Positions 4,414-64,000 of a DNA stretch of 64,000 nucleotides are shown piece after piece (within the stretch, counting starts at the first letter, position 1; the number at the start of each line of letters is the position of its first letter). The notes beneath the pieces are model-generated. The model searched no databases. It saw only the letters and a program-made list of their open reading frames with translations, and was not told the DNA's origin. The position numbers and the translations under genes are program-made. Source of the DNA: an uncultured virus (IMG/VR IMGVR_UViG_3300025671_000003) (Duplodnaviria; Heunggongvirae; Uroviricota; Caudoviricetes). Location: the IMG/VR virus record IMGVR_UViG_3300025671_000003. One strand, 5' to 3'.

Positions 4414-5118
4414 ATGAGTAAATATTTAATACAAAAAAATAGTTCAGGAGCTACATTAAAGGATGTAGATGTAAAGAATGGAGTAATTACAGGATACTTT
4501 GCCTCATTTGATACATTGGATAGTGATGGGGATGTATTTACTAAAGGGGCTTTTAAAAAGTCTATTAATGAAAATAGTAATAGGATAATGCATTTATTAC
4601 AGCATGATGTATTAAAGCCTATAGGTAGACCTGAGGTATTAAGAGAGGATACTAAAGGTTTATACTTTGAAACTAAGTTAAACAGTAAACAGTTAGAGGT
4701 ATCATATATAAAAGATACTTTAAAACTATATGAGGCAGGAGTATTTAATGAGCATAGTGTAGGATTTATTACTATGCAGGAGCATAAGGGTAATAAAGGA
4801 GGTAACTCAGTTAACTTTATCTCTGAGGCTAAGTTAATGGAGGGGAGTACTGTTACATGGGGGGCTAATGAGAATACTCCATACATGGGATTAAAATCGT
4901 TAACAAAAGATAATATAAATGATAGAATAGATAAAGTCTGTAAGGCTCTAAAAATAGGAGAGCTATCAGATGACTTATTTATAAAGTTAGAAATAGAGCT
5001 ACAAAGTATTAAAACTTTTATCAGCCAATTAAAGCAGCCATCTGAGGATACTGCAGATATAATTACTGAGAAAGCAAATGCAGATGTAGTAAACTTTCTA
5101 AAACAATTAAAAATTTAA
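4414..5118 (+). CDS. HK97-type prohead protease
   Basis: GYFASF..DSDGD..GAF, LLQHD..PIG, SVGF, EGSTVTWGAN. Confidence 0.93.
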   Translation: MSKYLIQKNSSGATLKDVDVKNGVITGYFASFDTLDSDGDVFTKGAFKKSINENSNRIMHLLQHDVLKPIGRPEVLREDTKGLYFETKLNSKQLEVSYIKDTLKLYEAGVFNEHSVGFITMQEHKGNKGGNSVNFISEAKLMEGSTVTWGANENTPYMGLKSLTKDNINDRIDKVCKALKIGELSDDLFIKLEIELQSIKTFISQLKQPSEDTADIITEKANADVVNFLKQLKI

Positions 5119-5143
5119 TAATAACAATTTAAACTTAAAAAAA

Positions 5144-6382
5144 ATGTCAGAAATTGATGTAAAAAGTTTAGCAGATGGTATCAACGGTAAGTTAGATACT
5201 CATGAGGCTAACATGAAAAGTTTATCAGATAAGATAGAGGCTGTAGAAAAATATGCAGGATCTACTGATGAAATTAAAAAAGAATTAAATGCAATTAATG
5301 AGGAGCATAAAAAAAGTAGCTCAGAGTTAATGGATTTAGTAAAAAAGGCTCAGGCTCATGCTGATGAGTTAGATGTACAGTTAAAAAAGAAAGGCTCTAA
5401 CAAAGTAGTTAGCCGTAAAGGTTTAATCTTAGAGGCAGCAAATGAAAAAGCTGCAGAGTTAAAGCAATTATCTGTAGATGGGCAAGGTAAAGTATCTTTA
5501 TCTGTTAAGGCAGGAGATATGACTCAGGCTAATACCTATACAAATGATGTAGCTGCTACTCAGTTGTTAAACGGTACTTATTTTAACCCTGATAGAGCAG
5601 TAAACATCAGAAACTTTATGAATGTAATACCTACTACTGCAGGTAGTATTAGATATATTCAGGAGACTGCTTTTGATGATGGTACTGCTGCTAAAGCAGA
5701 GGGAAGTGCTGCAGGTCAATCTGATTTTGATTTAACAGAGCAAACTGCTAATGTAAAATCTATAGCTACTTATATGACTATGAGTAAAGAAATGTTAGAG
5801 GATACTCCATTTTTAGCAGGTTATATTAATGCACGTTTATTCTCTAAATTGTTAAAAGAGGAGGATGATCAAATTCTACATGGTACAGGAGCAGGAGCTA
5901 ATATCTCAGGTTTATCTGTAAATGCATCTGCTTATAGTGATTTATTAGCTGATAGTAAAGTAAATAGATTTGATGTATTATTTAACGCTTTAACTAATGC
6001 TTATAATAATGAGTATGTACCTAATGCTATCTTTGTAAACCCTACCGACTATATGTTGTTAGCTACAGAGAAAGATGATAATGGTATGCCTATCTATCCT
6101 GCTCAAATTTTATCGGGAGGTATGTTAACTGTAAATGGAGTACCTGTTATTAAGAGTACTGCAGTAACATCTGATGAGTTTTTTGTAGGAGATTTTAGAT
6201 TAGGGGCTACATTAGCTGTTAGACAGGATGTAAACGTATCATTTAGCTCTGAACATTCTACTAACTTTATTGATGGTAATGTAACAGTTATGGCTGAGGA
6301 GAGAGTAGCTCTGCCTATCCATAATACTCAGGCTTTTGTTTATGGAGATTTTTCAAATGCATTAGCATTAGGATCAGCATAA
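5144..6382 (+). CDS. HK97-fold major capsid protein
   Basis: Coiled-coil delta domain, EDDQILHGTG, FFVGDF, AEERVAL. Confidence 0.93.
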   Translation: MSEIDVKSLADGINGKLDTHEANMKSLSDKIEAVEKYAGSTDEIKKELNAINEEHKKSSSELMDLVKKAQAHADELDVQLKKKGSNKVVSRKGLILEAANEKAAELKQLSVDGQGKVSLSVKAGDMTQANTYTNDVAATQLLNGTYFNPDRAVNIRNFMNVIPTTAGSIRYIQETAFDDGTAAKAEGSAAGQSDFDLTEQTANVKSIATYMTMSKEMLEDTPFLAGYINARLFSKLLKEEDDQILHGTGAGANISGLSVNASAYSDLLADSKVNRFDVLFNALTNAYNNEYVPNAIFVNPTDYMLLATEKDDNGMPIYPAQILSGGMLTVNGVPVIKSTAVTSDEFFVGDFRLGATLAVRQDVNVSFSSEHSTNFIDGNVTVMAEERVALPIHNTQAFVYGDFSNALALGSA

Positions 6383-6422
6383 TTAAAGATGCCATATTGT
6401 TAAGTATATTATATTTAATAAT

Positions 6423-6456
6423 AAAAAAGCCCTCTACTATTTGTAGGGGGTTTTTT
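6423..6456 (+). terminator. Rho-independent terminator after the capsid gene
   Basis: AAAAAAGCCCTCTAC-TATTT-GTAGGGGGTTTTTT hairpin with T run. Confidence 0.85.
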
Positions 6457-6472
6457 GTATAAGATATTTTAC

Positions 6473-6480
6473 TATATTTG
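6473..6480 (+). promoter_or_regulatory. TAnnTTTG promoter element for the phage A glycan module
   Basis: TATATTTG just after the terminator. Confidence 0.6.
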
Positions 6481-6505
6481 TAGGGAGCAAATCAAATAAA
6501 ACATT

Positions 6506-7135
6506 ATGAGCAATAAAATAAGTATTTGTATATGTACACTACCTCAAAGAATGGATAGTTTAGCAGATGTACTATGGGATTTAGAAAATCAATACAATAA
6601 ACTTACTAAAGAGTATCAGGATAGAGTAGAGATATTATATTTAGGAGATTTTAAAACCTTAACAGTAGGAGCTAAAAGGAATAGATTAGCTAACTGCAGT
6701 ACAGGAGATTATATATCTTTTATAGATGATGATGATAGTGTATCTGATACTTATTTATGTCATTTATTAAATGCTATTGATACAGCTCCTAATATGGATG
6801 TATATACTTTTAAAGTAGAGATTAGTATTAATGGAGGTATGCCTAAGGATGTATATTATAGTAAAGACTATTTAAAAGACCAAAATTTAAAGGATAGATA
6901 CCTTAGAATACCTAACCATTTAATGTTATTTAAAAGCCATTTAGTAACCTTAAATAGATATGAGGATATATCATTTAGAGAGGATGAGAAATGGGCTAAA
7001 AAGGTATTAAATCAAATTAAAACAGAGTACAAAATACCTTATACTTTATATAGGTATAACTGTAATCATGCTAATAGTGAAACTCTACCAAAAGAAATAA
7101 AAGAAAGTTTATTAAAATCAGAGGATAATGATTAA
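6506..7135 (+). CDS. GT2/GT-A glycosyltransferase
   Basis: ISICICT, GAKRN, GDYISFIDDDD, ED motif. Confidence 0.88.
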   Translation: MSNKISICICTLPQRMDSLADVLWDLENQYNKLTKEYQDRVEILYLGDFKTLTVGAKRNRLANCSTGDYISFIDDDDSVSDTYLCHLLNAIDTAPNMDVYTFKVEISINGGMPKDVYYSKDYLKDQNLKDRYLRIPNHLMLFKSHLVTLNRYEDISFREDEKWAKKVLNQIKTEYKIPYTLYRYNCNHANSETLPKEIKESLLKSEDND

Positions 7136-7307
7136 TACATATAACTATTGGTGCCTAAATGTAGAATGTAATGAAAATACTTTACTACATATAAGTACTA
7201 CAGAAAAAAACAAGGATAAAACTAAATGCCCTAAATGTAAGGGTAAATTAAAATTAGTGGGGCTACATAGTAATATATTACATCATGGTACTCAGGAAAG
7301 CAGATAA
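7128..7307 (+). CDS. 59-aa zinc-ribbon protein (not in the ORF track)
   Basis: Hand translation MINTYNYWCLNVEC...CPKCKGKL; overlaps the upstream stop. Confidence 0.65.
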   Translation: MINTYNYWCLNVECNENTLLHISTTEKNKDKTKCPKCKGKLKLVGLHSNILHHGTQESR

Positions 7308-7308
7308 A

Positions 7309-8004
7309 ATGGATAAAATCAGTTTAATAATAGTACATAAGGGGGATACTCAGGCTAATATAGATATGTTAACAGAGTGCTATGAGAGTGCAATATATAC
7401 AACTAAAGCAGATTTAGAGGTAATAGTAGTATATGATGCTGCTCATACTGTACCTAATTTAGCTACTACTTTAATAGATAAGAAAGTAAAACAGCCTAAG
7501 CCTTTTAATTATAATGCCTCATTAAATGCAGGGGCAGATGTATCTACAGGTAATTACTTATATTTTGCTAACTCTGATTTGATATTTAAAGAGGGTGCAT
7601 TAGATGAGCTAATACTAATGAGTAAAAAACATACTTTGCATAGTTCATCTGCTATATGCCCTGTAGCCCATAGCTATACAAAAAATAAAAGAGGGGTAAT
7701 GTTATCATATAATGTAGGTACTCATTTTACAGGATGGGGATTTATGTTAACAAGGTATGCCTATAATAGAATAGGTAAATTAAAAACTAATTGCCCTTTT
7801 TATTGTGCTGATAATGAAACTGTAGAGCAGTTAAAAGCTGCAGGGTTGAGGCATGGATTAGTAAAGAGTGCTGAGATAGAGCATTTAGGACAACAAACTC
7901 AAAAGAATTTAGATAGTAAAACCTATTTTGCATATTGTGTAGATAGTGTTAAGAAATTTAACAAATTGTATGATCAAAATATATTTAACTTAAATAATAA
8001 ATAG
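7309..8004 (+). CDS. GT2/GT-A glycosyltransferase
   Basis: FNYNASLNAG, YLYFANSD, FYCAD; start moved to ATG 7309. Confidence 0.85.
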   Translation: MDKISLIIVHKGDTQANIDMLTECYESAIYTTKADLEVIVVYDAAHTVPNLATTLIDKKVKQPKPFNYNASLNAGADVSTGNYLYFANSDLIFKEGALDELILMSKKHTLHSSSAICPVAHSYTKNKRGVMLSYNVGTHFTGWGFMLTRYAYNRIGKLKTNCPFYCADNETVEQLKAAGLRHGLVKSAEIEHLGQQTQKNLDSKTYFAYCVDSVKKFNKLYDQNIFNLNNK

Positions 8005-8005
8005 T

Positions 8006-8299
8006 ATGGCAAATAAAGATAAAAAAAAGAATAACCCTATAAGTAAAAGGGCTTATAATAGGAGGTTAAAACAGTTAAAGGGTAAACATAAACCTCATAC
8101 AGAAAACATAAGTAAGGAGGCTAAATTACAAACCCATACAGAGCTATTAACCATGTATGAGCTATTTATAAAACAAACAGGGCAGCGTAAAAGGTTTACT
8201 AAATGGCTATCTAAAAATGTAGCATCTGTACCTAAACAAAAATATACTTTAGTAGATAGGCTAAAAGTTATTATTAATTATTTCTTTAAACCTTTATAA
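8006..8299 (+). CDS. Basic hypothetical protein
   Basis: Tightly packed ORF in the operon. Confidence 0.6.
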   Translation: MANKDKKKNNPISKRAYNRRLKQLKGKHKPHTENISKEAKLQTHTELLTMYELFIKQTGQRKRFTKWLSKNVASVPKQKYTLVDRLKVIINYFFKPL

Positions 8300-8300
8300 G

Positions 8301-8939
8301 ATGAGCAATTTATATGACACAAATAATATATATTTATTTGATAAGAAAGGTAATAAAATACATAGTACTGCTATAATAGAGGATGAGGTAATAATAGGCT
8401 CAGATAATTATATAGGGGCTTATACTGTTATTAAATCAGGTACAACTATAGGAGATAATAATTATATAGGGATAGGCTGTATAATAGGGGATGATCCTGA
8501 AAAAGTAGGCTGTTTTGATGTAGTATCAGGGGTAGTTATAGGTAATAATAATAGATTATCTAAGCAGGTTACTATAGATAGGGGTAATGTAGTTAAAACA
8601 TTGTTAAAAGATAATATACTAATGTTAAAAAATGCTCATATAGGGCATGACTGTAAAATTATGGATAACTGTACTATAGGCTGTAATGTAGCTATAGGAG
8701 GTAATACATTTATGGAGGCTTTTGTAACATTAGGGTTAAATGCATCAGTACATCAGAGGAGTTGGATACCTATGGGTAGTATGATAGGAGCAAATAGCTT
8801 TTGGAAAGATAACTATACTGATGAGATATTACCTGAGGATGATTTTTGGATATGGGTAGGTACTCCTACAGAAAAAACAAAGCCAAATAATATAGGGTAT
8901 AATAGATATGTAGAAATAAAAGAAAATGAAAAAAGATAA
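8301..8939 (+). CDS. LpxA-like hexapeptide-repeat acyltransferase
   Basis: IG-x-N-x-IG hexapeptide repeats, VTIDRG, AHIGHDC, VHQ. Confidence 0.88.
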   Translation: MSNLYDTNNIYLFDKKGNKIHSTAIIEDEVIIGSDNYIGAYTVIKSGTTIGDNNYIGIGCIIGDDPEKVGCFDVVSGVVIGNNNRLSKQVTIDRGNVVKTLLKDNILMLKNAHIGHDCKIMDNCTIGCNVAIGGNTFMEAFVTLGLNASVHQRSWIPMGSMIGANSFWKDNYTDEILPEDDFWIWVGTPTEKTKPNNIGYNRYVEIKENEKR

Positions 8940-9624
8940 TATAAAGGTAGTAGTATCATATCCATCTCATAATAGGTTAGATTATTGTAAAATAACTTTA
9001 CCTCAGGTTATTAATGAGGTTAAAAATGCTAAGAATAAAAGCATATTATATATAGGGGATGATAACTCTACAGATGGTACATGGGAGTATATTAATAGTA
9101 CTATGGGGGCTACTGTAATAGAACAGCAAAAGGTAGGTAATAGTATATGGCAGCTAAATAATGCTTTTGATTTAGCACGTTCAGTTAATGCTGAGTATGT
9201 TTATGCTATGGCTAATGATATATTAATGCCTGATGGTATAATAGATAAAATGGTTAAGTTAATGGAGCAATATCCTGATGCCTGTAGTATGATGGTAGAG
9301 GAGTGTTTTAATATGCCTTATATACATCCTGCTATAACAGTAGAGGAGCATTTATTTACATCCTCTTTAGGTATCCATAGAGTAGAGGCATATCCTCAAA
9401 AGATGGTAGCAAATAAAAGGTTTTTCGGCTTTCAAGATTATCAAAGAAAGGCTATTAAAAATCATGGCTTTGCTGCTTATAGGATTAAGGGGATAGGTAA
9501 TACTAATTTAGATGGTAGCTCATGGAGTAGGCAGGATGAGTATGAGAGTTTAGGTTATGCTCGAAAAGGGTTAGTAAGTAATGAAAAAAGTATTTATAAA
9601 TTTGAAAAGGGGCAAATAGAATGA
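8926..9624 (+). CDS. GT2-like glycosyltransferase
   Basis: YPSHNR, DDNSTDGT, ANDIL. Confidence 0.8.
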   Translation: MKKDNIKVVVSYPSHNRLDYCKITLPQVINEVKNAKNKSILYIGDDNSTDGTWEYINSTMGATVIEQQKVGNSIWQLNNAFDLARSVNAEYVYAMANDILMPDGIIDKMVKLMEQYPDACSMMVEECFNMPYIHPAITVEEHLFTSSLGIHRVEAYPQKMVANKRFFGFQDYQRKAIKNHGFAAYRIKGIGNTNLDGSSWSRQDEYESLGYARKGLVSNEKSIYKFEKGQIE

Positions 9625-10583
9625 TTAATATATTATTTCATATACCTTTATATGTAGATGTACAACTATCAGGGGGAGAGAAAACGGCTCAGGATTTTGC
9701 TGAGTATCTTAAAAGTACAGGGGATTATAATGTTAGGATTATAGCAGATAGAACTAATAAAAATAGTTTTAATAATATAGATTTATATAGTGAGGATAAT
9801 ACTGATGTACCTTTACAGCATCATTATAAATGGGCTAATGTAGTTTTTACTCATTTAGGTAAACAAGGTAAAGCAGTTAACTACTCTAAAATGAATAAAG
9901 TACCTATCTGTATCTATATGCATAATACTAATGGATCAGTATTAGCTAAGGCACGTAAGGAGATAGGAGTAATTTATAACAGTTATTTTACAGAGCATAG
10001 GATAGCTGCAGATTTTACAGGTAACAAATCAGCATTAATAAGACCTATACTAAAATTAGATACATCATTTAACTCTAATGGTAAATATATTACTATGATT
10101 AATCTAAATGAGAATAAAGGAGGGTTATTATTAAAACAGATAGCAGAGAGCCTACCTGAGTATGATTTTTTAGCTATTACAGGGGGTTATGCTAAACAGT
10201 TTACCCATCAGCCTAAAAATGTAAAGGTACTACCTCAGCAGGAGGATATGAGTAAAGTGTATAAGGATACTAAATTACTTATTATGCCATCTAATTATGA
10301 GAGCTATGGACGTACTGCAGCAGAGAGTATAGGTTATGGGATACCTGTACTATACTCAGATACTAATACAGCATTAGAGGAGGTAGTAGGTAATGCAGGA
10401 GAGCCTGTAAAAGATAGGAATAATATTAACTCATGGGTTAAAGGTATTAGATGGATAGATAATAATATTGATCATTATAGAGGTAGGGCAATTAATCAAA
10501 GGCTATTTTTATTACAACAAATAGAGAGAGATAAAGACAATTTTAAAGCCTTTATTAAAAACCTTATCTTTGATAAAAAATAA
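9621..10583 (+). CDS. GT4/GT-B glycosyltransferase
   Basis: SGGE, NKGG, MPSNYESYGRTAAE (Ex7E), GIPV. Confidence 0.9.
   Translation: MINILFHIPLYVDVQLSGGEKTAQDFAEYLKSTGDYNVRIIADRTNKNSFNNIDLYSEDNTDVPLQHHYKWANVVFTHLGKQGKAVNYSKMNKVPICIYMHNTNGSVLAKARKEIGVIYNSYFTEHRIAADFTGNKSALIRPILKLDTSFNSNGKYITMINLNENKGGLLLKQIAESLPEYDFLAITGGYAKQFTHQPKNVKVLPQQEDMSKVYKDTKLLIMPSNYESYGRTAAESIGYGIPVLYSDTNTALEEVVGNAGEPVKDRNNINSWVKGIRWIDNNIDHYRGRAINQRLFLLQQIERDKDNFKAFIKNLIFDKK
10565..10572 (+). promoter_or_regulatory. TAnnTTTG element restarting the structural operon
   Basis: TATCTTTG at the end of the GT4 gene. Confidence 0.5.
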
Positions 10584-10589
10584 TATAAG

Positions 10590-10838
10590 ATGGCAAATAA
10601 TAAAATAGAAGTAACTTTTTTTAAACCTACATCAGTAGATAGTAAATTTTATAAAGCAGGAGATACTGCATTTATACCTGAAAATGCTGCAAAAGTATAT
10701 GAGGGTAAAAGGCTATCTATAGGTAAAGTAGTACCTAAAAAAGTAACTAAAAAGGCAGAGCCTAAAGCTGAGCCTATAAAACCTAAAACTAAAACAAATG
10801 TTAGTAAAACTAAAAACGGACTTAGTACAAAAAAATAG
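10590..10838 (+). CDS. Small Lys-rich head-module protein
   Basis: ORF; position before the head-tail adaptor. Confidence 0.6.
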   Translation: MANNKIEVTFFKPTSVDSKFYKAGDTAFIPENAAKVYEGKRLSIGKVVPKKVTKKAEPKAEPIKPKTKTNVSKTKNGLSTKK

Positions 10839-10998
10839 TGTAGCTAAAGCAGGGGATAAAGTAGATATATCTGAGGCTCAGGCTAAATATTTAATCTCAA
10901 TAGGGAGGGCTGAGGCTATTACTGTTAAGGTTAAAGAGGAGAAAACTGAGAAAAAAACAAAACAATTAAAAACTAATAAGGATACTAAAGATGCCTAA
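10798..10998 (+). CDS. Small head-module protein (KAGD...A.YLI..G.A type)
   Basis: Motif typical of small post-capsid proteins. Confidence 0.6.
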   Translation: MLVKLKTDLVQKNSVAKAGDKVDISEAQAKYLISIGRAEAITVKVKEEKTEKKTKQLKTNKDTKDA

Positions 10999-11602
10999 TT
11001 TTAATGTAAATACTTTCCATGAAATATCTGTTACCTCTGCTCCTGTTAATCCTGTAGTAAGTACTGCAGATATGAAAACTTTTTTGGAGGTAGGCTATGC
11101 TACAGATGATACATTAATAGCTGCTTTTGTAACTACTGCTACTAAATTAATAGAGGAGTATCTAAATAGGGCTTTAATTAGTCAAACTTTAAAAGTATTT
11201 TATAAAAGCTACTCAGGTTTAGTAGATTTACCTCATGCTCCTATACAGTCAGTTACTACTGTAGAGCAGATTAGTTATGATAATAACTCTACTACTTTAA
11301 CAGTTAATAATGATTATTATGTTAAGGGTATTAATGATAAATATATAGAGTTTGCAGGGAATACATATTTACCTGCAGGGCATACAGTAAGAGATATATT
11401 AAATGATTATCAATTACAGGTAACTTATGTAGCAGGTTATGGGGATGATAGTACTGATATACCTGAGCCTATTATAGATGCAGTTAAAAGGGTAGTTTTA
11501 AGGTTATATGATTATAGAGATACAGGTATGAGTATTACAGATAACTTAATACCTAATGATGCTAAAATATTGTTAGAGCCTTATAAAAACATTAAATTAT
11601 AA
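10991..11602 (+). CDS. Head-tail adaptor (gp6/gp15-like)
   Basis: DDTLI, EEYLNRALISQT, VTYVAGYG, LLEPYK. Confidence 0.88.
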   Translation: MPNFNVNTFHEISVTSAPVNPVVSTADMKTFLEVGYATDDTLIAAFVTTATKLIEEYLNRALISQTLKVFYKSYSGLVDLPHAPIQSVTTVEQISYDNNSTTLTVNNDYYVKGINDKYIEFAGNTYLPAGHTVRDILNDYQLQVTYVAGYGDDSTDIPEPIIDAVKRVVLRLYDYRDTGMSITDNLIPNDAKILLEPYKNIKL

Positions 11603-11925: not shown

Positions 11926-12418
11926 AATAGGTATTAATAAAGCATCTCAAAAAAAGTTAGCCCAAAAAATACAGGGTTATAAGGATGAGGTATTAAAACC
12001 TATTGCAGATGCCAATGAGATAACTACAAGGAGTATAATAAGAGATGCAAGGAGAAACCTAAAAGTAAATGGTACTGATAATACAGGAGGGTTAAGGAAT
12101 AGCATGAAAAAGGTAGGTACTCAGGATAATGGGTTAATACATGAGATAGCTCCTACAGTACATTATGCATTAGATATAGAGGAGGGTACTCCTCCTCATA
12201 AAATAGCATCAGGAGAGTATGGGGATTTATCAGATTGGGTTAGAAAAAAGTTAGGAGTATCAGGTAATGAGGTAGGTAGAGCTACATACTATGTTAGTAA
12301 AAAGATAGCAGAGGAGGGTACAGATGCTCAGCCATTTTGGTTTAATGCTATAGCTCTAAATGAGGATAAGCATATAAGAAATATTAAAAGAGAATTAAAG
12401 AAATTTTTTAAAAAATGA
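11915..12418 (+). CDS. HK97 gp10-like tail completion protein
   Basis: TGGLRNS, YALDIEEGT, AQPF. Confidence 0.85.
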   Translation: MKVKIGINKASQKKLAQKIQGYKDEVLKPIADANEITTRSIIRDARRNLKVNGTDNTGGLRNSMKKVGTQDNGLIHEIAPTVHYALDIEEGTPPHKIASGEYGDLSDWVRKKLGVSGNEVGRATYYVSKKIAEEGTDAQPFWFNAIALNEDKHIRNIKRELKKFFKK

Positions 12419-14217
12419 TAGATAGCTATAATGAATTAAGGGAGGAGTATTATACAGCTTTACAGGGTAGTATAACATTAAATGCTACTACTGTTAATGT
12501 ATATGATGTAGTAAAGGCTGATGAGGATACTCCATTTATATACTTTGCTGATTTTGATTTTAAAGAGGATAGCTGTAAAGATAATTTTAATGGGGTAGCT
12601 ACTATTACATTAATGGTTATTACTAAATATACTAATGCTGTAGGAGGCTCTGCAGATAGTGATAATATAGGTAGCCAAATATTAAAATTGTTACATAATG
12701 ATACCTATTTTACATCAGATAACTTTAGGGTAGTAACTAATAGGCTTTTAGATAATAGTACAGATAAAGTACCTACTAAAACAGGTACGAGAATAGTTAA
12801 AACTATAGTATTAGAGCATTATTTAGCTCAAATATCAGGAGATTTAACAAGGATAACAGATTTAGCTGCATCAGATAATGGTACTACTCAGATAGATTTA
12901 ACATGGAGTAGGGTAACAGGTAATGCAGGTTATAGGGTAGAATATACTAATAATATAGATAATGGATGGAGTTTATTAGTAACTAATGCTACAGATACAG
13001 AGAGTTATAGCCATACAGGAGTAACTACAGATTTAATATATTATTATAGGGTAAGGGCTTTTGATAGTTCGGGAGGCTCAGGATGGAGTAATATAGTAGC
13101 AGAGAGAACACAAATCACAGGTATCTGCTCTGATGCTACAGTAGAAAACTCAAATTTATCCTATACTAATACTGTAGGTAGTGGGGATACATTAGTATTA
13201 CCCGATATAGATATTACTAATATTTTAGGTACAACAACCTCATATCCATCTGTTATAGATATAGATTTAAGAGTTTCTCCAACTAATACGGTTGCTCCTT
13301 TAGTGAGTGGTAATGCTTATCAAAATCAAACATTAACAACAACAAACGGAACTTGGATAACACACGCAACAACAACTTATACTTATCAATGGAAAAGGGA
13401 TGGGGTTTCTATTGGTGGCGAAACTAATAGCACTTATTTAACAACATTAACAGATATAGGAACATCAATAACTTGTGAAGTAACAGCTACTAATACAGTA
13501 GGAGCTACATCTTCAACATCCAATGGTATTTCGGTAGAATTTAATCCTTTATCAATAACAGATTTAAAGTTATATATTCCTAAAAATACGGCTTTGCGTT
13601 CTTTGTCTTTAGATAAAAGCCCAAATGCTTTTGAATTTGCACAATCAACACAAGCATTTAAGCCAATAATAGCTACAAGTTATGTTAATTTTAATGGTAC
13701 AAATGGATTTCAAAATGCAGTTGGAAGTGATTTATTAAATCATACAAGTGGATATTTTTTTTATAATGGTTATTTTGATGGTACAGCTCAAAGTTTTATT
13801 ACAAGTGCCGACAGTTCAATAGATACCACTTATATAATTTTTGGTATTAATTCAAATGGTACTATTTATATTCAAGTAAATATTGCAGCGAATAATAGAA
13901 AAATACAAAGTACAAACGCAGTTGTAAGTGGATCTAATTTTAGATGTTGGTTTAAATGGAATAATAGTGGTAGTCCTTACGTTATAAACTTAAACGGCAA
14001 TACAGAAACAAATGTTGTGTTTACAGGGACTGATGATGGAAAAGGTTTTGGACACATAACAGGCAGGGATAATTTAACATTAGGAAGTTTACAGAGATTA
14101 AGTGCTGTTTACAATTCACAAAGCTACAATAAAATATTAGTATCAAGTTCATCAAGTTTGAGTGCTTCTGAATTGTCAGCAATAGACACATTTATGAGTG
14201 TAACAACAAACTATTAA
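12415..14217 (+). CDS. Tail terminator (DUF3168-like) fused to FN3, Ig-like and LamG/ConA-like domains
   Basis: N-terminal VYD..PFI at the terminator position; FN3 (IDLTW...YYYRVRA); Ig (YTYQW...ITCEVTATN); C-terminus homologous to 56327..57034. Confidence 0.75.
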   Translation: MIDSYNELREEYYTALQGSITLNATTVNVYDVVKADEDTPFIYFADFDFKEDSCKDNFNGVATITLMVITKYTNAVGGSADSDNIGSQILKLLHNDTYFTSDNFRVVTNRLLDNSTDKVPTKTGTRIVKTIVLEHYLAQISGDLTRITDLAASDNGTTQIDLTWSRVTGNAGYRVEYTNNIDNGWSLLVTNATDTESYSHTGVTTDLIYYYRVRAFDSSGGSGWSNIVAERTQITGICSDATVENSNLSYTNTVGSGDTLVLPDIDITNILGTTTSYPSVIDIDLRVSPTNTVAPLVSGNAYQNQTLTTTNGTWITHATTTYTYQWKRDGVSIGGETNSTYLTTLTDIGTSITCEVTATNTVGATSSTSNGISVEFNPLSITDLKLYIPKNTALRSLSLDKSPNAFEFAQSTQAFKPIIATSYVNFNGTNGFQNAVGSDLLNHTSGYFFYNGYFDGTAQSFITSADSSIDTTYIIFGINSNGTIYIQVNIAANNRKIQSTNAVVSGSNFRCWFKWNNSGSPYVINLNGNTETNVVFTGTDDGKGFGHITGRDNLTLGSLQRLSAVYNSQSYNKILVSSSSSLSASELSAIDTFMSVTTNY

Positions 14218-14319: not shown

Positions 14320-14730
14320 ATGGCAACAGCAGGAGTATTTGATGGCAGGTTACTAAGAATTAAAATTGATGGTAATACTGTAGCATGTGCAAAAGAATGT
14401 ACATTAAACATAGATCAGGATTTACCTGATGCAACTTGTAAAGATGATGCAGGATGGAATAACCATATTAATGGGCAAAAATCATGGAGTTTAGATGTAT
14501 CTGCTCTAACTGATTTTAGTGCTACTATAGGGGTATCTGATTTAGGTACAGCTTTAATTAATGGTACTAATGTTACTGTATTATTTACTACAGGAGTATC
14601 AGGGGATACAGAGTGGACAGGTACAGCAGATATATCTAATATATCTATTACTGCATCTAATGGAGCAGTATCAGAGTACTCAGGTACTATTAATGGTAAA
14701 GGTGCTTTAACTCAATCAGCAGTATCATAA
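14320..14730 (+). CDS. Major tail tube protein (TP901-1-like)
   Basis: DATCKD..GW...GQKSWS, GKGALT. Confidence 0.88.
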   Translation: MATAGVFDGRLLRIKIDGNTVACAKECTLNIDQDLPDATCKDDAGWNNHINGQKSWSLDVSALTDFSATIGVSDLGTALINGTNVTVLFTTGVSGDTEWTGTADISNISITASNGAVSEYSGTINGKGALTQSAVS

Positions 14731-30316: not shown

Positions 30317-30546
30317 GTAAAATAAAAAAATATACTCCTGAGCAATATAATACAGGAGAATTAAACCTATTAACTATGGAGAAAAAATTAATAATTAGAG
30401 TATCTAAGTTAATGAGGCATAAAAGAGATTTAACAGCTAAAGTATTAGGTATATCTGAAAGGAATTTATATTTTAAAATAGATAGGCATGATATAGGGCA
30501 TTTAACTACATTTAACCATAAAAAAAAAGAGCATGAAAGTAACTGA
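30313..30546 (+). CDS. Fis-type HTH protein
   Basis: TAKVLGISERNLYFKI. Confidence 0.75.
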   Translation: MSKIKKYTPEQYNTGELNLLTMEKKLIIRVSKLMRHKRDLTAKVLGISERNLYFKIDRHDIGHLTTFNHKKKEHESN

Positions 30547-31189
30547 TAAAATAACAATTACAAACGAAGATAATATGCTATTAATGGCACGTTATCCAGA
30601 TAACTATTTTGATTTAGCTATTGTTGACCCACCTTATAAAAATGAATTTGTAATTGCGGCAAGTGATAATGCAAGTAAAGTAAAAAGAAATGGAAACCTA
30701 AAAACACTAAATAATAACGTACCTACAAATGAATATTTTACTGAACTTAAAAGAGTAAGCAAAAATCAAATAATATGGGGTGTTAATTATTATGAAATTT
30801 ATTTAGGTGCTGGAAGGATAGTTTGGGATAAAGATAATACGGGTGTTTATTCAGATTGTGAATTAGCGTACCATTCTTTTTCTGATGTAACAAGAAAGTT
30901 TAAATGGAGGTGGAACGGTATGCTTCAGCAAGATATGAAAAACAAAGAAACAAGAATACATCCAACACAAAAGCCTCGACAACTTTATAACTGGCTTTTA
31001 GATAAATACGCAAATGATGGAGATAAAATATTAGATACTCACTTAGGTAGTGGCTCTATTGCTTTAGCTTGTCACAATAGAGGCTTTGAATTAACAGCCT
31101 GTGAATTAGACAAAGATTATTATAATGCAGCAATAAAAAGAATTAAAAACCATACAGCTCAAACATCTATATTTGATTTTGGGGCTTAA
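30533..31189 (+). CDS. N6A/N4C DNA methyltransferase, beta class (copy 1)
   Basis: DPPY, HPTQKP, ILDTHLGSGS. Confidence 0.92.
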   Translation: MKVTDKITITNEDNMLLMARYPDNYFDLAIVDPPYKNEFVIAASDNASKVKRNGNLKTLNNNVPTNEYFTELKRVSKNQIIWGVNYYEIYLGAGRIVWDKDNTGVYSDCELAYHSFSDVTRKFKWRWNGMLQQDMKNKETRIHPTQKPRQLYNWLLDKYANDGDKILDTHLGSGSIALACHNRGFELTACELDKDYYNAAIKRIKNHTAQTSIFDFGA

Positions 31190-31198
31190 AACTAAATT

Positions 31199-31864
31199 AT
31201 GAAAGTAACAGATAAAATAACAGTAACAAACGAAGATAATATGCTTTTAATGGCACGTTATCCAGACAACTATTTTGATTTAGCTATTGTTGACCCTCCT
31301 TATGGTGGTAATGATGCAATAGGTTTAAAAGATAATACATCCAAAGGTAAACAAGCGACTAAAAGAACAAATTATAATGTGTTTGAGAATATTGCACCAA
31401 CCAAAGAGTATTTTAAGGAGCTAATAAGAGTTAGTAAAAATCAGATTATTTGGGGAGTAAATTTTTATAATAATTTTGATTTATCAGGAGGACGTATTTG
31501 TTGGGATAAAAAGGGGACGGCTTTTGGTAGAGCTGAATTAGCTTTTTATAGTGGTTCTAAGTCTGTTAATGTATATGAGTTTACTTGGAACGGTATGATA
31601 CAACAAGATATGAAAAATAAAGAGGTAAGAATACATCCAACACAAAAGCCTCGACAACTTTATAATTGGCTATTAGATAACTACGCTAAAGAGAATGATA
31701 AAATATTAGACACTCATTTAGGTAGTGGGAGCATTGCCTTAGCTTGTCACGATAGAGGCTTTGAATTAACTGCTTGTGAATTAGACAAAGACTATTACGA
31801 GGCAAGTATTAAAAGAATTAAAAACCACGTTTCACAAGTAACTATATTTGATTGTGGAGCTTAA
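31199..31864 (+). CDS. N6A/N4C DNA methyltransferase, beta class (copy 2)
   Basis: Same motifs; tandem paralog. Confidence 0.92.
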   Translation: MKVTDKITVTNEDNMLLMARYPDNYFDLAIVDPPYGGNDAIGLKDNTSKGKQATKRTNYNVFENIAPTKEYFKELIRVSKNQIIWGVNFYNNFDLSGGRICWDKKGTAFGRAELAFYSGSKSVNVYEFTWNGMIQQDMKNKEVRIHPTQKPRQLYNWLLDNYAKENDKILDTHLGSGSIALACHDRGFELTACELDKDYYEASIKRIKNHVSQVTIFDCGA

Positions 31865-33079: not shown

Positions 33080-33100
33080 GATATATCAGATATATTGATT

Positions 33101-33108
33101 TATATTTG
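33101..33108 (+). promoter_or_regulatory. TAnnTTTG element before the cassette region
   Basis: TATATTTG, intergenic. Confidence 0.55.
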
Positions 33109-33194
33109 TAGAGAGCAAAACAATTAATTAAAACATCATAAGCAAAAAATATAATAATTAGTATGGTTGTAGCTGTATATAAAATAGATTAGTT

Positions 33195-33569
33195 ATGAGT
33201 ATAGAAGAAATAAAAATACATAATTGCAATAATAATACAACAATTTTTAATACGGATGATTGGATTAAGAATGATGATTTTATAAAATTTGCTAAGTCTA
33301 AACAACAAAAGATAGACCAATTAGAAAGAGAGGTTGAGGATTTAAGGAGTGGTAAAAATACAATGGTTTTTGGTGGTAGGTCAATAGGAAAAACGTATTT
33401 ACAAAGCATTGAAAAAGAAAACCAACAGTTAAAAGAAAGGAATAAGGAGTTGGAGAGATTCGCTAAAATACAAGATGCAAATTTGAATGACTTGTTTTAT
33501 CAAAAAAGATTAAATGAAAAAGTAATAAAGTTAAGAGATGGGTTAAAACAACTATTAAAAACTAAATAG
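33195..33569 (+). CDS. Coiled-coil hypothetical protein spanning the A/B junction
   Basis: ORF track; allele of 2..304. Confidence 0.75.
   Translation: MSIEEIKIHNCNNNTTIFNTDDWIKNDDFIKFAKSKQQKIDQLEREVEDLRSGKNTMVFGGRSIGKTYLQSIEKENQQLKERNKELERFAKIQDANLNDLFYQKRLNEKVIKLRDGLKQLLKTK
33224..33339 (+). repeat. Direct repeat copy 2
   Basis: Identical to 1-116. Confidence 0.95.
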
Positions 33570-37627: not shown

Positions 37628-38482
37628 ATGAGTATTAAAATACTAATAGGAACTGTTACAGCACAAAATAAAGATTACTGCTGGAAAGATTTTAAAAAAC
37701 AATTACTTGGATTACAGAAATTAGGACACGATGTTTTAATAGTTGATAACTCAGATACAATAGTTAATAGACCACCGTTTAAGACTATTCATTACACTAA
37801 AGGAACTTTGTTGAGGAAAAAGTTCGATTTGATAAACAAACAGCAAAAATCAAAAGACAATTATCTTACAATAGTTACTAAAGACTGTATGAATATTATA
37901 AGAGATGAGTTTCTTAAAGGAGATTATACCCATTTATTTATATTAGAGTCTGATGTATTTTTAGATAAGGATTTTAAGTCTTTAGATAGACTAATAGAGC
38001 TTAATGCTGATGTTGCTAACTTTACTTATCCGATGAAGTTAACACGTAATAAAGGAGCTTTATCTTTATGTGTTCAATCAACAAACGCTAAAGGAGAAGC
38101 AAAGATGATAACACCAGACGAAAGTAAGACATTGTTAAATCAAGGTGTTAAAGTTTTAAATGTAGATGTACATAATGATAAGACGTTAACTCATTGTGGT
38201 TATGGTTGTACATTAGTAAAGCGTAGAGTATTAGAGGCTATTGATTTTAAAGCAGTAAGAACTTCTAATGGTGTTACCCCTTTTCCAGATAGTGTATTTC
38301 ATTATGACGTTAATAAAGGCAATTTTTATAATGTTTTAGATACCGATTATATTCCTTATCATTGCAATATAAACAATGAAACAGAGAACTATATGAAGAT
38401 AACCCAAATTAGAAACAATACAACAAGGAGACAAAGACGTGAACAAGATAAGATTAATAAGAAAATACAAAAAAGAGGGTAG
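37628..38482 (+). CDS. GT-A-fold glycosyltransferase
   Basis: IVDNSD, YTHLFILESDV, GYGCTLVKR.VL, PDSVF. Confidence 0.78.
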   Translation: MSIKILIGTVTAQNKDYCWKDFKKQLLGLQKLGHDVLIVDNSDTIVNRPPFKTIHYTKGTLLRKKFDLINKQQKSKDNYLTIVTKDCMNIIRDEFLKGDYTHLFILESDVFLDKDFKSLDRLIELNADVANFTYPMKLTRNKGALSLCVQSTNAKGEAKMITPDESKTLLNQGVKVLNVDVHNDKTLTHCGYGCTLVKRRVLEAIDFKAVRTSNGVTPFPDSVFHYDVNKGNFYNVLDTDYIPYHCNINNETENYMKITQIRNNTTRRQRREQDKINKKIQKRG

Positions 38483-38711
38483 AGTTTTATTAGTTAGTTC
38501 TAACAGATATTATGATTGTTATTTCATTTCTAATAATAAAAGCTATAAGAAGCTACTTGAAGAATTACAGATTAAATTAATAGGCTTAGATGTAGCAGAA
38601 TGTGAACATCAAGACTTAACTGTACTTTTAGAAACTAAACACGCTAATAAATTAATTGCTGATTTGTTTGAGTTGGCAAATGTAGTAAGATGTAAAATGA
38701 TTAAGGTATGA
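38439..38711 (+). CDS. Hypothetical protein
   Basis: ORF overlapping both neighbours. Confidence 0.5.
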   Translation: MNKIRLIRKYKKEGRVLLVSSNRYYDCYFISNNKSYKKLLEELQIKLIGLDVAECEHQDLTVLLETKHANKLIADLFELANVVRCKMIKV

Positions 38712-39334
38712 AGAAAGTTTGTGTAGTACCAATATTCGGAGATTATGACAATCTAAAAGAGCCTACATTTATTAACGATGATTGGAAGTATATCTGTATA
38801 TCTGATAAACACCATAAGTCTAATGTATGGAAAACTAAGATATTTAAAAACGATACATTAACTAACAAACAAAAAAGTGGTTATGTATTAACTCAGCTTC
38901 ATAGACTTTTAGATTATGATGTTGCTATTGTAGTCGGTGGACAAATACAAATCAACACAGACTTAAATAAGTATATCTTTGATGAAGACTTTGTTAGCTT
39001 AGACCACCCAAGTAGAAACTGTATTTATAAAGAAGCTCAAGCGTGTATCTTATTAGACAAAGACAATCCAAAGGTTATAGCTAAACAGATGTATAAGTAT
39101 TTAGAAGAAGGCTATCCAGTTAATAATGGAATGATACAAACTGGCATAACAATTAGAAAAGATAATAATTTAATTCGTACTTTTATGAATAGGTGGTGGT
39201 ATGAGATACAGACGTATTCACAGAGAGACCAATTAAGCTTTAACTATGTGAAGCATCAAATACCAATATCACATAGAGAGTTAAGTAGTAATTTATTAAA
39301 TAAAGAATTTAAACTAAATAAACATAATGGGTGA
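38708..39334 (+). CDS. DUF616/TOD1-MUCI70-like glycosyltransferase
   Basis: IFGDYDNL.EP, HPSRNCIY.E, WWYEI...SQRDQLSFNY. Confidence 0.85.
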   Translation: MKKVCVVPIFGDYDNLKEPTFINDDWKYICISDKHHKSNVWKTKIFKNDTLTNKQKSGYVLTQLHRLLDYDVAIVVGGQIQINTDLNKYIFDEDFVSLDHPSRNCIYKEAQACILLDKDNPKVIAKQMYKYLEEGYPVNNGMIQTGITIRKDNNLIRTFMNRWWYEIQTYSQRDQLSFNYVKHQIPISHRELSSNLLNKEFKLNKHNG

Positions 39335-39482
39335 GATAAAAGAGTTATTAATTAAGAATGGTTGGATTGAAACGAATAACATAAAACCAACATTTAAAAA
39401 GGACGATGTATTTATAAGGGTTGAGGTGTGGGGCGTAACAGATAAAGGTGGTTGTACAAAAGTAATTGATTTAACTAAATAA
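39327..39482 (+). CDS. 51-aa micro-ORF flanked by 16-bp direct repeats
   Basis: Hand translation; AACTAAATAAACATAA at 39312-39327 and 39473-39488. Confidence 0.6.
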   Translation: MGEIKELLIKNGWIETNNIKPTFKKDDVFIRVEVWGVTDKGGCTKVIDLTK

Positions 39483-39663
39483 ACATAAGTAATATGAAAA
39501 AAGGAATAATATTTATAATGATTGCAGTAGCTCTTTTTTATGGGTTGACGTATTTAATGACTGAACTATCATTTGATTACTGGTGGCATTTTCCCACATA
39601 TGTAGTTGGTGGTGTTTTAATGATATTATTTATTGTAATTGGGTGTTATAATATTTTATCAAA

Positions 39664-40389
39664 ATGAAAATAACAATAGTGACAGCAATATGGCAACGTC
39701 CCGAAGTTTGGGATATGTTTAAACAAGGTGTAAGACGTTTAAGAAACCAATACAACGATGTTGATGTTCAAGTCTGTGTTAGTGGTTCAGAGGGTGGAGC
39801 CTCTCAAAACAGATGTAAAGAAAAGTGGATTCACTATGTTGAAATAGAAAACAATCCTTTAGGTAGAAAGATGAACGCTGCATTAACATTAGCAAAACAA
39901 ACTAATGCAGATTATTATTTGTTAATGGGTAGTGATGATATTATCTGCAATAACTTATTTGATTTATATTTAGATTATATTGAGCAAGAGATTGACTACA
40001 TTTATTTAATGGACGGGTACTTCTTTGACACAACAACTAAGCGTTCTTTATATTGGGGTGGTTATGCTGATAAATTAAACTTAGGCAGACCACTTGGAGC
40101 AGGTAGAATGTTAAGTAAAAGATTAGTAGAGAAAATGGATTATAAGTGTTGGTATGATGTTAAACTAAGTGGATTATTAGACCAAGCAATGGATGAGAAG
40201 TTGGCAGAGATTGATTATACTAAGCAAGAAATATATTGCAGAGATAACGATTGTATGTTGTTAGATATTAAGAGCAGTACTAATATGACAAAGTTTGCTA
40301 AATGGAATAATACAGAGTTTATACATACTGATATTATTAAAAATTATTTACCTATATTTGAATTTAATAAAATATATTATGTCAAATAA
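39664..40389 (+). CDS. GT-A-fold glycosyltransferase
   Basis: VTAIWQR, PLGRKMN, LLMGSDD, GAGR, LD. Confidence 0.78.
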   Translation: MKITIVTAIWQRPEVWDMFKQGVRRLRNQYNDVDVQVCVSGSEGGASQNRCKEKWIHYVEIENNPLGRKMNAALTLAKQTNADYYLLMGSDDIICNNLFDLYLDYIEQEIDYIYLMDGYFFDTTTKRSLYWGGYADKLNLGRPLGAGRMLSKRLVEKMDYKCWYDVKLSGLLDQAMDEKLAEIDYTKQEIYCRDNDCMLLDIKSSTNMTKFAKWNNTEFIHTDIIKNYLPIFEFNKIYYVK

Positions 40390-40564
40390 AACAAAAGTGT
40401 ATTTAGTAAGTGAAAAAGAGCCTTCATTCAACACAATAATTGAGGCTAAGAAAGGAGTAAAAGGAAAATGGGAAAAGGTTAAAAGAACTTATCAAGGAGA
40501 TAAACCCGAATACAATTTTCCTAAAGAAGATAACGGATTTACTCATTGGAGGTATTTATTATGA
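40379..40564 (+). CDS. DUF551-like small protein
   Basis: VSEKEP...FTHWRYL; ATG at 40379. Confidence 0.5.
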   Translation: MSNKTKVYLVSEKEPSFNTIIEAKKGVKGKWEKVKRTYQGDKPEYNFPKEDNGFTHWRYLL

Positions 40565-41157
40565 ATAATAAAATAAGCCAATTTGCTTTTGTTTCTCCAA
40601 ACGCTATTATAGGAGATAACAACATCATAGAGGAGGGTGTTGTGATAAAAGATAATGTAGTAATAGGAGATAACAACCATATCTACCCATATACAACAAT
40701 CGGATTAGCTGGAGAAGTTAGAGGAGATGACAATATAAAAGGCAAAGTAGTAATAGGTAATAACAATGTAATAAGAGAGTTTACAAGTATTCAATCCCCT
40801 CAAAGGTATGATTACACTCAAATAGGTAACAACTGCTTTATAATGGATAAAACGCATATTGCACACGATTGTATTGTAGGAGATAATGTTACTATTGCAC
40901 CAATGGTTACTTTAGGCGGTTGTGTTAATGTTGGCAACTATACTAACTTAGGCATTAACTGTTCTATACATCAGAGGCTAACAATCGGAGAAAGTTGTAT
41001 GATTGGAATGGGTGCTATAATAGTTAAAGATATACCTAACTATGAAAAGTGGGTTGGAGTACCTGCTAAGTGTATCGGTTGGAATTTACTTGGCTTAAGA
41101 AAGCGTTACCCAAATAAAACAGAAGAAGAAATTATAGAACTATGTGTGGTATCTTAG
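40561..41157 (+). CDS. LpxA-like hexapeptide-repeat acyltransferase
   Basis: IGDNN repeats, IREFTSI, HIAHDC, IHQ, GVPAK. Confidence 0.9.
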   Translation: MNNKISQFAFVSPNAIIGDNNIIEEGVVIKDNVVIGDNNHIYPYTTIGLAGEVRGDDNIKGKVVIGNNNVIREFTSIQSPQRYDYTQIGNNCFIMDKTHIAHDCIVGDNVTIAPMVTLGGCVNVGNYTNLGINCSIHQRLTIGESCMIGMGAIIVKDIPNYEKWVGVPAKCIGWNLLGLRKRYPNKTEEEIIELCVVS

Positions 41158-41621
41158 CAGTCATAGGAGATTATAGGTATAAAGAAATACCAAAAGCATT
41201 ATTAGAACGTGGTAGAGATGATAACGGTATCTATCAAGATAAACACGTTCAGCTAATACAAACACGCTTAGAGATAACTAAGTGTAATATTGAGCTACCA
41301 TATCAAACAGATAGATATGTATTGTTATTTAATGGAGAAATATACAACTATAAACAGTTTGGAGATAATGAATATGAAGCAATATTAAATGTATATCAAT
41401 ACGGTGGAGAGTTAGACGGTCAATATGCTATTATAGTTTATGATAAACAAACTAAAGAAGTAACAACGCTTACAGATAGTTTTGGCATTCATTGCTTATA
41501 CAAAGATGATTATAATGGTAGTAGGTTCTACTCATCTAATTTAAGAAGTTTACCAAAGATTGAATTTAAAGAAGCACAACATAGAGGATATGGAAACATT
41601 ACCAAGCAAAGAGTTTTATAA
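41142..41621 (+). CDS. AsnB-type Ntn glutamine amidotransferase domain (stand-alone)
   Basis: MCGI N-terminus, RGRD, RLEI, FNGEIYNY, DGQYA, DSFG. Confidence 0.88.
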   Translation: MCGILAVIGDYRYKEIPKALLERGRDDNGIYQDKHVQLIQTRLEITKCNIELPYQTDRYVLLFNGEIYNYKQFGDNEYEAILNVYQYGGELDGQYAIIVYDKQTKEVTTLTDSFGIHCLYKDDYNGSRFYSSNLRSLPKIEFKEAQHRGYGNITKQRVL

Positions 41622-42339
41622 AGCATTTCTAAACGCTATAATTAAGAGAATGACTGATAATATAGTCGTTCCAGTTAGTGGTGGTTTAGACTCAACACTA
41701 ATAGTTAAGGCTTTATATGATTTAGGATTAGAAAACGATGTTCAATATGTTACAATGTATGGTAATGAGTATGCAGATAAGGTAGCAGAAACTTATAGTA
41801 TCAAGTTAGATGTATTTACTCCAGACTATAAAGAAGAAGATTTAGTTAAAATGGTTGAGATATTAGAAGAACCTTTTTATTCTCCAAGCGTAAACTATTA
41901 CTTATATGAAAAAATACATAGCATTGGTGGTCGAGTTTCTCTTAGTGGTTTGGGTGCTGATGAGCTTTTTGGTGGTTATGATTATTATAACACAAATAAA
42001 TACCCTCGAGGTTTGTTTAAAGAAGTTGTGGCGATTTCTAACAAAGAAAAGAAAGCGCAAGATTTACACTTTCTAACTAATCATCATTTAAGAGAGAATG
42101 AGAAGTTAGGGTTATATTGGCAAGTAGAAGGACGTTATCCTTTCTTAGATAAAGTAGTAAGTAAGACTGATGACAATGGTAAGAGTTTAATAAAGGATAT
42201 ATTACTTAGAGATTTTAGTGATGACTTTGTTAATAGACAAAAAGAGGGTTTCAGAATAGATGATAATAAAGATAGAGAACATCAAAAACAGCATTATATG
42301 AAACAATTAAATATTTGGAAGCAGATATTTATGAAATAA
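41590..42339 (+). CDS. AsnB-type synthetase domain (stand-alone)
   Basis: SGGLDS, LSGLGADELFGGY, EGRYPFLD, RQKEGF. Confidence 0.9.
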   Translation: METLPSKEFYKAFLNAIIKRMTDNIVVPVSGGLDSTLIVKALYDLGLENDVQYVTMYGNEYADKVAETYSIKLDVFTPDYKEEDLVKMVEILEEPFYSPSVNYYLYEKIHSIGGRVSLSGLGADELFGGYDYYNTNKYPRGLFKEVVAISNKEKKAQDLHFLTNHHLRENEKLGLYWQVEGRYPFLDKVVSKTDDNGKSLIKDILLRDFSDDFVNRQKEGFRIDDNKDREHQKQHYMKQLNIWKQIFMK

Positions 42340-63935: not shown

Positions 63936-63946
63936 AAACAAATAAG

Positions 63947-64000
63947 ATGAAAGTAAGAACTATTAAAGAAATTGAAAACACAGAAAGAGATGTTAATTTT
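63947..64000 (+). CDS. 3'-truncated ORF with an ectoine-synthase (EctC)-like N-terminus
   Basis: MKVRTIKEIENTERDVNF; only 18 codons visible. Confidence 0.4.
   Translation, partial: MKVRTIKEIENTERDVNF

Follow-up and report, generated by a model that had tools for sequence, protein, structure and literature searches.

Within the accessible parts of the open literature searched, virion glycosylation of tailed phages is shown only for mycobacteriophages. The virions of Che8 are glycosylated (PMC12363180, PMC11256854, PMC13445384), and Che8 gp110 and Corndog gp38 are described as essential for capsid glycosylation (PMC12363180). The glycans are reported at the C-termini of the capsid and tail tube subunits (PMC12619734) and their link is formed via oxygen (PMC13445384). 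In the present study, a glycan cassette of seven open reading frames (ORFs) is described, which is located between the HK97-type capsid gene and the head-tail adaptor gene of an uncultured aquatic virus (IMG/VR record IMGVR_UViG_3300025671_000003). The whole analysed stretch of 64,000 nt is referred to as the window and the phage bearing the cassette as phage A. Virion glycosylation is considered the probable function of the cassette on the basis of homology, conserved position and the evidence against DNA modification and lysogenic conversion.

Actinophage relatives of the cassette glycosyltransferases

According to Pfam, the cassette encodes three glycosyltransferases (GTs) of family GT2 (GT2a, GT2b and GT2c), one of family GT4 and one hexapeptide-repeat protein (Table 1). 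The GenBank phage records matching GT2a were Mycobacterium or Gordonia phages in 61 of 61 cases. GT2a shared 33% identity over 186 aa with the GT domain of Che8 gp108 (E 3e-27, pairwise), which adjoins gp110. With Omega gp16, the identity of GT2a was 38% in the N-terminal half (residues 29-222) and that of GT2b 29% in the C-terminal half (residues 289-453). The preliminary description of this DNA had taken it as established that some mycobacteriophages glycosylate capsid and tail proteins with GTs encoded among their structural genes. The gene position agrees for Omega gp16, located immediately 3' of the Omega capsid gene, whereas the Che8 GTs lie at the right genome end.

The GT2a and GT2b domains co-occurred in 59 of the 135 fetched loci having a GT2a domain and were fused in 26. 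Among the viral relatives of GT2a (best 80 of 532, with phage A itself and one locus without a tblastn match dropped), a packaging or structural gene was detected by our own profiles within 5 kb in at least 46 of 78 loci.

Loss of the catalytic DxD or Ex7E motifs had been named beforehand as a finding that would speak against the proposal. The motifs were retained or family-typical in all four GTs. The DDDD and ED of GT2a were invariant across 17 aligned proteins, GT2b has NSD at the position of NND in 12/12 aligned relatives, and the Ex7E of GT4, present in 26 of 27 complete ORFs, was intact. GT2c had no relative among cultured phages.

Position of the cassette in viral genomes

GT4 is the most position-conserved member of the cassette. 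In 65 of the 69 GT4 loci whose flank was long enough, a capsid gene was located at most 3.5 kb upstream; in 63 of 72, GT4 was directly followed by the adaptor gene. The survey comprised the best 80 of 578 confirmed loci from 28 of the 64 parts of IMG/VR, 78 of which were counted (phage A itself and one earlier locus omitted), and it was not dereplicated. GT genes beside capsid genes are recurrent, and in the viral locus L155 they are accompanied by the left-handed beta-helix (LbH) acyltransferase. L155 holds GT2a-GT2b-LbH-GT2c-GT4 and one extra gene behind a capsid gene of 45% identity; L235 has no LbH and a different gene ahead of GT4. The partners of GT4 interchange between loci and include GT25-like enzymes, methyltransferases, GT11, a cytidylyltransferase and epimerases, which points to a variable oligosaccharide assembly, as in variable surface-glycan loci. 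In many relatives of the clade the partner is a distant homologue of gp110/gp38 (E 2e-6).

The GT4 model had a GT-B fold (pLDDT 87; TM 0.7-0.8 to GT4 structures). Its closest folds include the O-antigen and glycolipid GT4s WbnH and PglA and the small-molecule GT4s BshA and MshA. The sole GenBank phage relative was gp20 of Streptomyces phage TurkishDelight (26%).

The C-terminus of the capsid protein

The capsids of the clade end in Gly-Ser/Thr-(Ala), which resembles Che8 and Corndog, where Ser is the last residue of the capsid and tail proteins. Ser411 of the phage A capsid is second to last and the tail tube protein of phage A ends in Ser; in Cellulophaga phage phi18:1, the capsid protein gp49 and the tube protein gp55 both have Gly-Thr at the end. 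The residue before Gly was variable and the residue after it stayed Ser or Thr. The best 80 of 167 capsid loci yielded 75 complete ORFs, which fell into 46 groups at 90% identity, of which 31 could be scored for the cassette. The ending G[ST][AG]? was found in 19 of the 21 cassette-bearing groups vs 1 of the 10 groups without GT. Flavobacterium phage 11b had no motif, and no GT was found in it by our own profiles. The loci L245, L251 and L252 were dropped as cassette-free controls, as L252 bears a different glycan cluster before its protease gene.

The LbH acyltransferase and the accessory ORFs

The LbH protein of 212 aa resembles LpxA in its fold (model pLDDT 90). H116 and D117 were invariant in 35 sequences, and H113 was also kept. 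The score with TIGR01852 was 98.8 bits, below the cut-off of 231, and the LpxA C-terminal domain PF13720 was absent from LbH and from the 62 best-ranked database proteins (LbH itself included). The best sequence match in the PDB was Pcryo_0615 (PDB 8E62; E 1e-17), an N-acetyltransferase for a diacetamido sugar. For the acyl decoration proposed earlier, acetyl is likelier than a long acyl chain, because LbH has a short LpxA fold closest to a sugar-nucleotide acetyltransferase, and LbH is likely to be an acetyltransferase rather than a lipid A enzyme. Phage A has no aminotransferase for an amino-sugar substrate, which would imply O-acetylation or a host substrate.

The LbH matches in GenBank phages were annotated as LpxA or unannotated. 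A GT was located within 2.5 kb in 75 of 79 LbH loci and a terminase gene at most 4.5 kb downstream in 51 of 56; 74 of the 79 loci formed one cluster at 70% identity. Most of the loci L158-L233 belong to a common phage group with LbH-GT2-GT just ahead of the terminase genes.

The Zn-ribbon and basic ORFs are accessory. The former had no tblastn match in L155, L235, L113, L089 and L262; the latter was present in L235 (46%), absent from L155 and had no usable Atlas match.

Organization of the phage A locus

The gene order and coordinates given in the preliminary description were reproduced by ORF and family scans, the latter covering all phage A ORFs except five short ones of <100 aa. All seven cassette ORFs are intact and closely packed, and two small ORFs separate GT4 from the adaptor gene, which starts at 10991. 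The estimate of about 4 kb in a 33-kb genome was borne out: the cassette ORFs cover 4,078 nt, or 12.3% of phage A, and window positions 1-33287 correspond to a separate 33,294-bp IMG/VR record (G001) that has direct repeats at its ends. The GC content of the cassette, 27-32%, was near that of the neighbouring genes, 30-35%. The linkage of the capsid gene with GT2a and GT2b is independently supported by a contig from a run of another study (X7), which bridges 4811-8013 with 150 differences.

As described earlier, the enzymes have no obvious transmembrane helix, the maximum hydropathy over any 19-residue window of the seven ORFs being at most 1.24, and the phage A ORFs that were scanned include no flippase, Wzy or GtrA. 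An integrase or divergent repressor was not detected among them either, and nearly all genes of phage A lie on a single strand.

The 71,401-bp contig consists of two phages, A and B, joined at a shared repeat of ~130 nt (window 33177-33306; contig 71272-71401), and is probably an assembly chimera. The two phages have replication and nuclease genes in common at ~68-77% identity.

Table 1. Coordinates of the cassette, candidate acceptors and regulatory elements in the window.
Feature	Position	Strand	Evidence or remark
HK97-type major capsid protein (MCP); candidate acceptor; ends Gly-Ser-Ala (codons 6371-6379)	5144..6382	+	PF05065, phrog_10
Terminator-like hairpin, A-run before, T-run after	6424..6456	+	RNAfold -19.5 kcal/mol
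TATATTTG, Bacteroidota -7 promoter-like element	6473..6480	+	33 nt before GT2a
GT2a, GT-A glycosyltransferase	6506..7135	+	PF00535; DDDD 74-77, ED 159-160
Small four-Cys Zn-ribbon ORF, accessory	7128..7307	+	weak PF09723/TIGR02605, under cut-off
GT2b, GT-A glycosyltransferase	7285..8004	+	PF00535; NxD motif
Basic ORF, no family	8006..8299	+	profile scans
LbH acyltransferase, short LpxA fold	8301..8939	+	PF00132; H113, H116, D117
GT2c, GT-A glycosyltransferase	8926..9624	+	PF00535; xND motif
TAAATTTG, possible internal promoter	9597..9604	+	24 nt before GT4 start
GT4, GT-B glycosyltransferase	9621..10583	+	PF00534; E227-x7-E235
TATCTTTG inside GT4 end	10565..10572	+	25 nt before next ORF
Tail tube protein with terminal Ser; further candidate acceptor	14320..14730	+	PF06199

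Regulatory signals and the likely host

The terminator after the capsid gene and the promoter element ahead of GT2a, both noticed earlier, were recovered as a terminator-like hairpin at 6424-6456 and a promoter-like element at 6473. The hairpin was the sole one of its kind found within 6380-11100, although a generic terminator scan did not list it. At the equivalent place behind the capsid gene, L155 and L235 have an inverted repeat with a T-run (by eye), and TATATTTG was also found behind the capsid gene in both. A second TAnnTTTG had been placed before the head-tail genes; it is present at 10565, within the last codons of GT4, and a third site at 9597 precedes GT4. In L155, TATATTTG occurs at the place equivalent to the 10565 site. 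The region 6458-6531, which includes the cassette promoter, was 75% similar over 81 nt to region 33084-33164 of phage A (site at 33101), and the two possibly belong to a shared regulatory class.

Contig-wide, 14 of the 78 TAnnTTTG sites were located 10-50 nt before an ATG vs 4.8 +/- 2.1 at random (p=0.001). At operon heads the motif was found in 7/24 cases vs 6/24 for the best permuted control. A sigma-70 promoter scan gave hits at chance level (47 vs 47.0). Shine-Dalgarno words preceded 8 of 107 starts, and A was predominant at -3 and at -11 to -13. The TAnnTTTG consensus corresponds to the Bacteroidota -7 element and forms, with sparse Shine-Dalgarno words and upstream A, a set of Bacteroidota signatures, from which we infer that the host is likely a member of Bacteroidota. 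The capsid-profile scan of genome contigs resulted in one distant match, in an Arsenicibacter bin, which at 31% was too distant to be used as a clue to the host.

Evaluation of virion glycosylation and its alternatives

Several observations weigh against the virion as the target of the cassette. The split in capsid endings follows the tree, therefore the link between motif and cassette amounts to only two independent lineage pairs, too few for significance. A Ser or Thr among the last three residues was found in just 41 of the 67 GT4-adjacent capsids, because of a large GT4-bearing lineage with capsids ending in YGAI or YGNI and of other dissenting cases; the Omega capsid ends in TFA and that of phage B in VAY. 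A universal C-terminal Ser/Thr rule was ruled out by the 26/67 capsids without such a residue. In runs X7 and X9, the Ser/Ala codons of the capsid are affected by a 4-base gap at 6376. The capsid-tail motif may be regarded as a testable lead, not as a rule. That the YGAI lineage keeps GT4 would be explained if the cassette modified other proteins or small molecules, namely minor virion proteins alone or the defence proteins or signals of the host, and the weak match of GT4 to PF20706 GT4-conflict and its BshA/MshA-like fold point the same way. These targets are considered distinctly unlikely; the interchangeable partners suggest oligosaccharide assembly, not one fixed small-molecule reaction.

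GT2a homologues were also found in cellular loci and at a distance from structural genes. The R...DDD...ED pattern of GT2a resembles that described for DNA-modifying GT-A enzymes in a preprint (10.1101/2023.12.21.572611). On this pattern, the cassette could be read as hypermodifying phage DNA against restriction, for which the Zn-ribbon and basic ORFs could provide DNA binding. The preprint describes DNA-hypermodification pathways as clustered, and considers DNA a less likely target for GTs that have no adjoining 5mYOX or ThyS (10.1101/2023.12.21.572611). The scanned phage A ORFs include no 5mYOX/TET, JBP, ThyS or C5-methylase to provide the hydroxylated base that such modification requires, the only methylases being two of N6/N4 type, 20 kb from the cassette. 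T4 beta-glucosyltransferase was not among the matches listed from the top 50 folds for the GT4 model. The observed vs expected site counts in phage A were 0 vs 141 for CTAG, 0 vs 35 for GGCC and 0 vs ~21 for CCWGG; such complete avoidance fits unprotected DNA. Because of this avoidance and the lack of base-hydroxylating genes, modification of DNA is disfavoured and is judged very unlikely.

With a promoter of its own after a terminator, the cassette could be expressed separately from the late genes, which also counts against the virion. Together with the O-antigen-type relatives of GT4 and LbH, this promoter makes a modification of the host surface possible: lipid-linked glycan intermediates of the host (O-antigen, capsule or Bacteroidota protein O-glycan) would be altered during infection at their cytoplasmic face, and the changed cell surface would block competing phages. 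WbnH and PglA are among the near folds of the GT4 model, LbH is nearest by sequence to a diacetamido-sugar enzyme, and LPS (lipopolysaccharide) modification has been proposed for phi18:1 gp41 (PMC11946311). A classic moron, on the other hand, has a terminator after its genes, and no terminator-like hairpin was found after this cassette. The absence of an integrase, flippase or membrane enzyme from the scanned ORFs disfavours serotype conversion. A further point against a surface role is that almost every gene shares the same strand. The place between the capsid and adaptor genes is fixed across many lineages. Host-surface modification is therefore considered unlikely.

A homologue of Che8 gp110 or Corndog gp38 was absent in the six frames of the contig (phages A and B), and phage A gave only weak matches to Che8 gp109 and Corndog gp37. 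The lack of gp110 lowers the case for membership in the Che8 system, not the working resemblance to it. Finally, the GT4 of L155 has an in-frame TAA inside the Ex7E motif (L155 5778-5780), which is either a pseudogene mark or an assembly error, and GT2c has AND where four other relatives have DND. Both would be expected of a decaying or neutral passenger cluster. The seven ORFs are, however, intact and tightly packed with conserved motifs, AND is common to L113 and L155, and synteny is held at 45% capsid identity, so that a passenger cluster is hardly credible.

Proposed mechanism and significance

Virion glycosylation remains the best reading of the cassette by homology and position. The four-GT, acyl-decorated oligosaccharide proposed earlier is partly supported: virion proteins are putative acceptors, the four GTs may build one chain, and acetyl is likelier than a long acyl group. 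In the proposed mechanism, the cassette would assemble a short sugar chain, probably bearing acetyl, on the capsid protein of the phage itself while in the infected cell, with the tail tube protein as a likely second acceptor. The donors would be host nucleotide sugars, as genes for sugar synthesis are absent from phage A. Priming of the Ser/Thr in the C-terminal Gly-Ser-Ala tail of the capsid would fall to one GT; GT4 is the candidate primer because no other member is as constant in the clade. The chain would be lengthened by the three GT2s, and LbH would transfer acetyl from acetyl-CoA onto a sugar or nucleotide sugar. Speculatively, the coat might shield particles in water from proteases, decoy adsorption or grazers.

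A broader proposal is put forward tentatively and with more doubt than confidence: a widespread lineage of aquatic Bacteroidota tailed phages might carry an O-glycan coat that varies and is acetylated or methylated. A capsid-linked GT4 would prime this coat at a C-terminal Gly-Ser/Thr sequon that mycobacteriophages have as well. If this is true, virion glycosylation would be common among phages, 'capsid serotypes' would be exchangeable, and the tailoring enzymes would include a family of short LpxA-fold acetyltransferases carried by phages. A capsid-linked cassette in many aquatic phages would carry virion glycosylation to another phylum, and in aquatic habitats without antibodies the purpose of the coat becomes a question. 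The phage A locus supplies a candidate acceptor motif and a candidate priming enzyme, and phi18:1 a cultured model. For glyco-engineering, soluble GTs able to prime proteins by recognizing a short tag at the terminus would be useful.

Additional observations

Phage B has a glycan cluster of its own at 37628-42339, between the terminase and tail genes. Its members are three ORFs resembling GTs, of which one belongs to PF04765, another protein with the short LpxA fold, and an amidotransferase of the asparagine-synthase type encoded by the overlapping ORFs 41142-41621 and 41560-42339. The relatives L156, L157 and L169 share part of it. The two phages avoid different sites: the CpG odds of A (1-33300) are 0.14 and CTAG and GGCC are missing, and B (33300-64000) has no GATC and almost no CATG. 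Tandem paralogous N6/N4 DNA methyltransferases with 75% DNA identity are located at 30533-31864. In the 600-aa ORF at 12415-14217, fibronectin III and other domains are fused to one that resembles a tail terminator, and at 62640-64000 a DUF3440/PAPS-reductase gene opens an IbrA/B-type cassette. In L307 (2223-5262), a distant capsid relative is accompanied by Tet_JBP and amino acid:DNA transferase genes, likely a DNA-modification cluster.

Comparison with known systems

The gtrABC-type features, i.e. membrane GtrB, the flippase GtrA, an integral transferase and a temperate phage, were not recovered by the phage A scans. LpxA has ~260 aa and the C-terminal helical domain PF13720, and LbH of phage A lacks both; the LbH fold, the His-Asp motif and a similar short length are common to Pcryo_0615 and LbH.

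Cultured phi18:1 has a related head module, with a GT (gp41) and a PF13578 methyltransferase (gp40) among the head genes. Gp41 is unrelated to the phage A GTs by blastp, matches a phage B GT (29%) and precedes the protease gene; no LbH is present. Gp40 (L395 6057-6524) is annotated as a DNA methyltransferase and matches, through PF13578, the methyltransferases of phage glycan cassettes, which makes a sugar methyltransferase more likely. The structural-module GT of phi18:1 has been read in print as modifying LPS, DNA or another target, with no capsid-glycan proposal in section 3.2 of the paper (PMC11946311). For one Bacteroidota phage, a GT encoded among the structural genes is therefore already in print. 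For a GT and LbH cassette beside a capsid gene no paper was found in the open literature searched, which does not establish its absence from print.

TurkishDelight gp20 lies between capsid and tail genes, like GT4 of phage A, but it is a tandem double GT4 of an actinophage. Omega gp16 (cluster J) and the double-GT2 proteins of Gordonia phages have these two GT2 domains arranged as in phage A; the pair is fused directly behind the capsid gene in Omega and split into two ORFs in phage A. Che8 gp108-110 and Corndog gp35-38 comprise a tailoring enzyme next to multiple soluble GTs of phage origin, as in phage A. The tailoring enzyme of Che8 and Corndog is an O-methyltransferase, whereas phage A, with a likely Bacteroidota host, has instead GT4 and a predicted LbH acetyltransferase.

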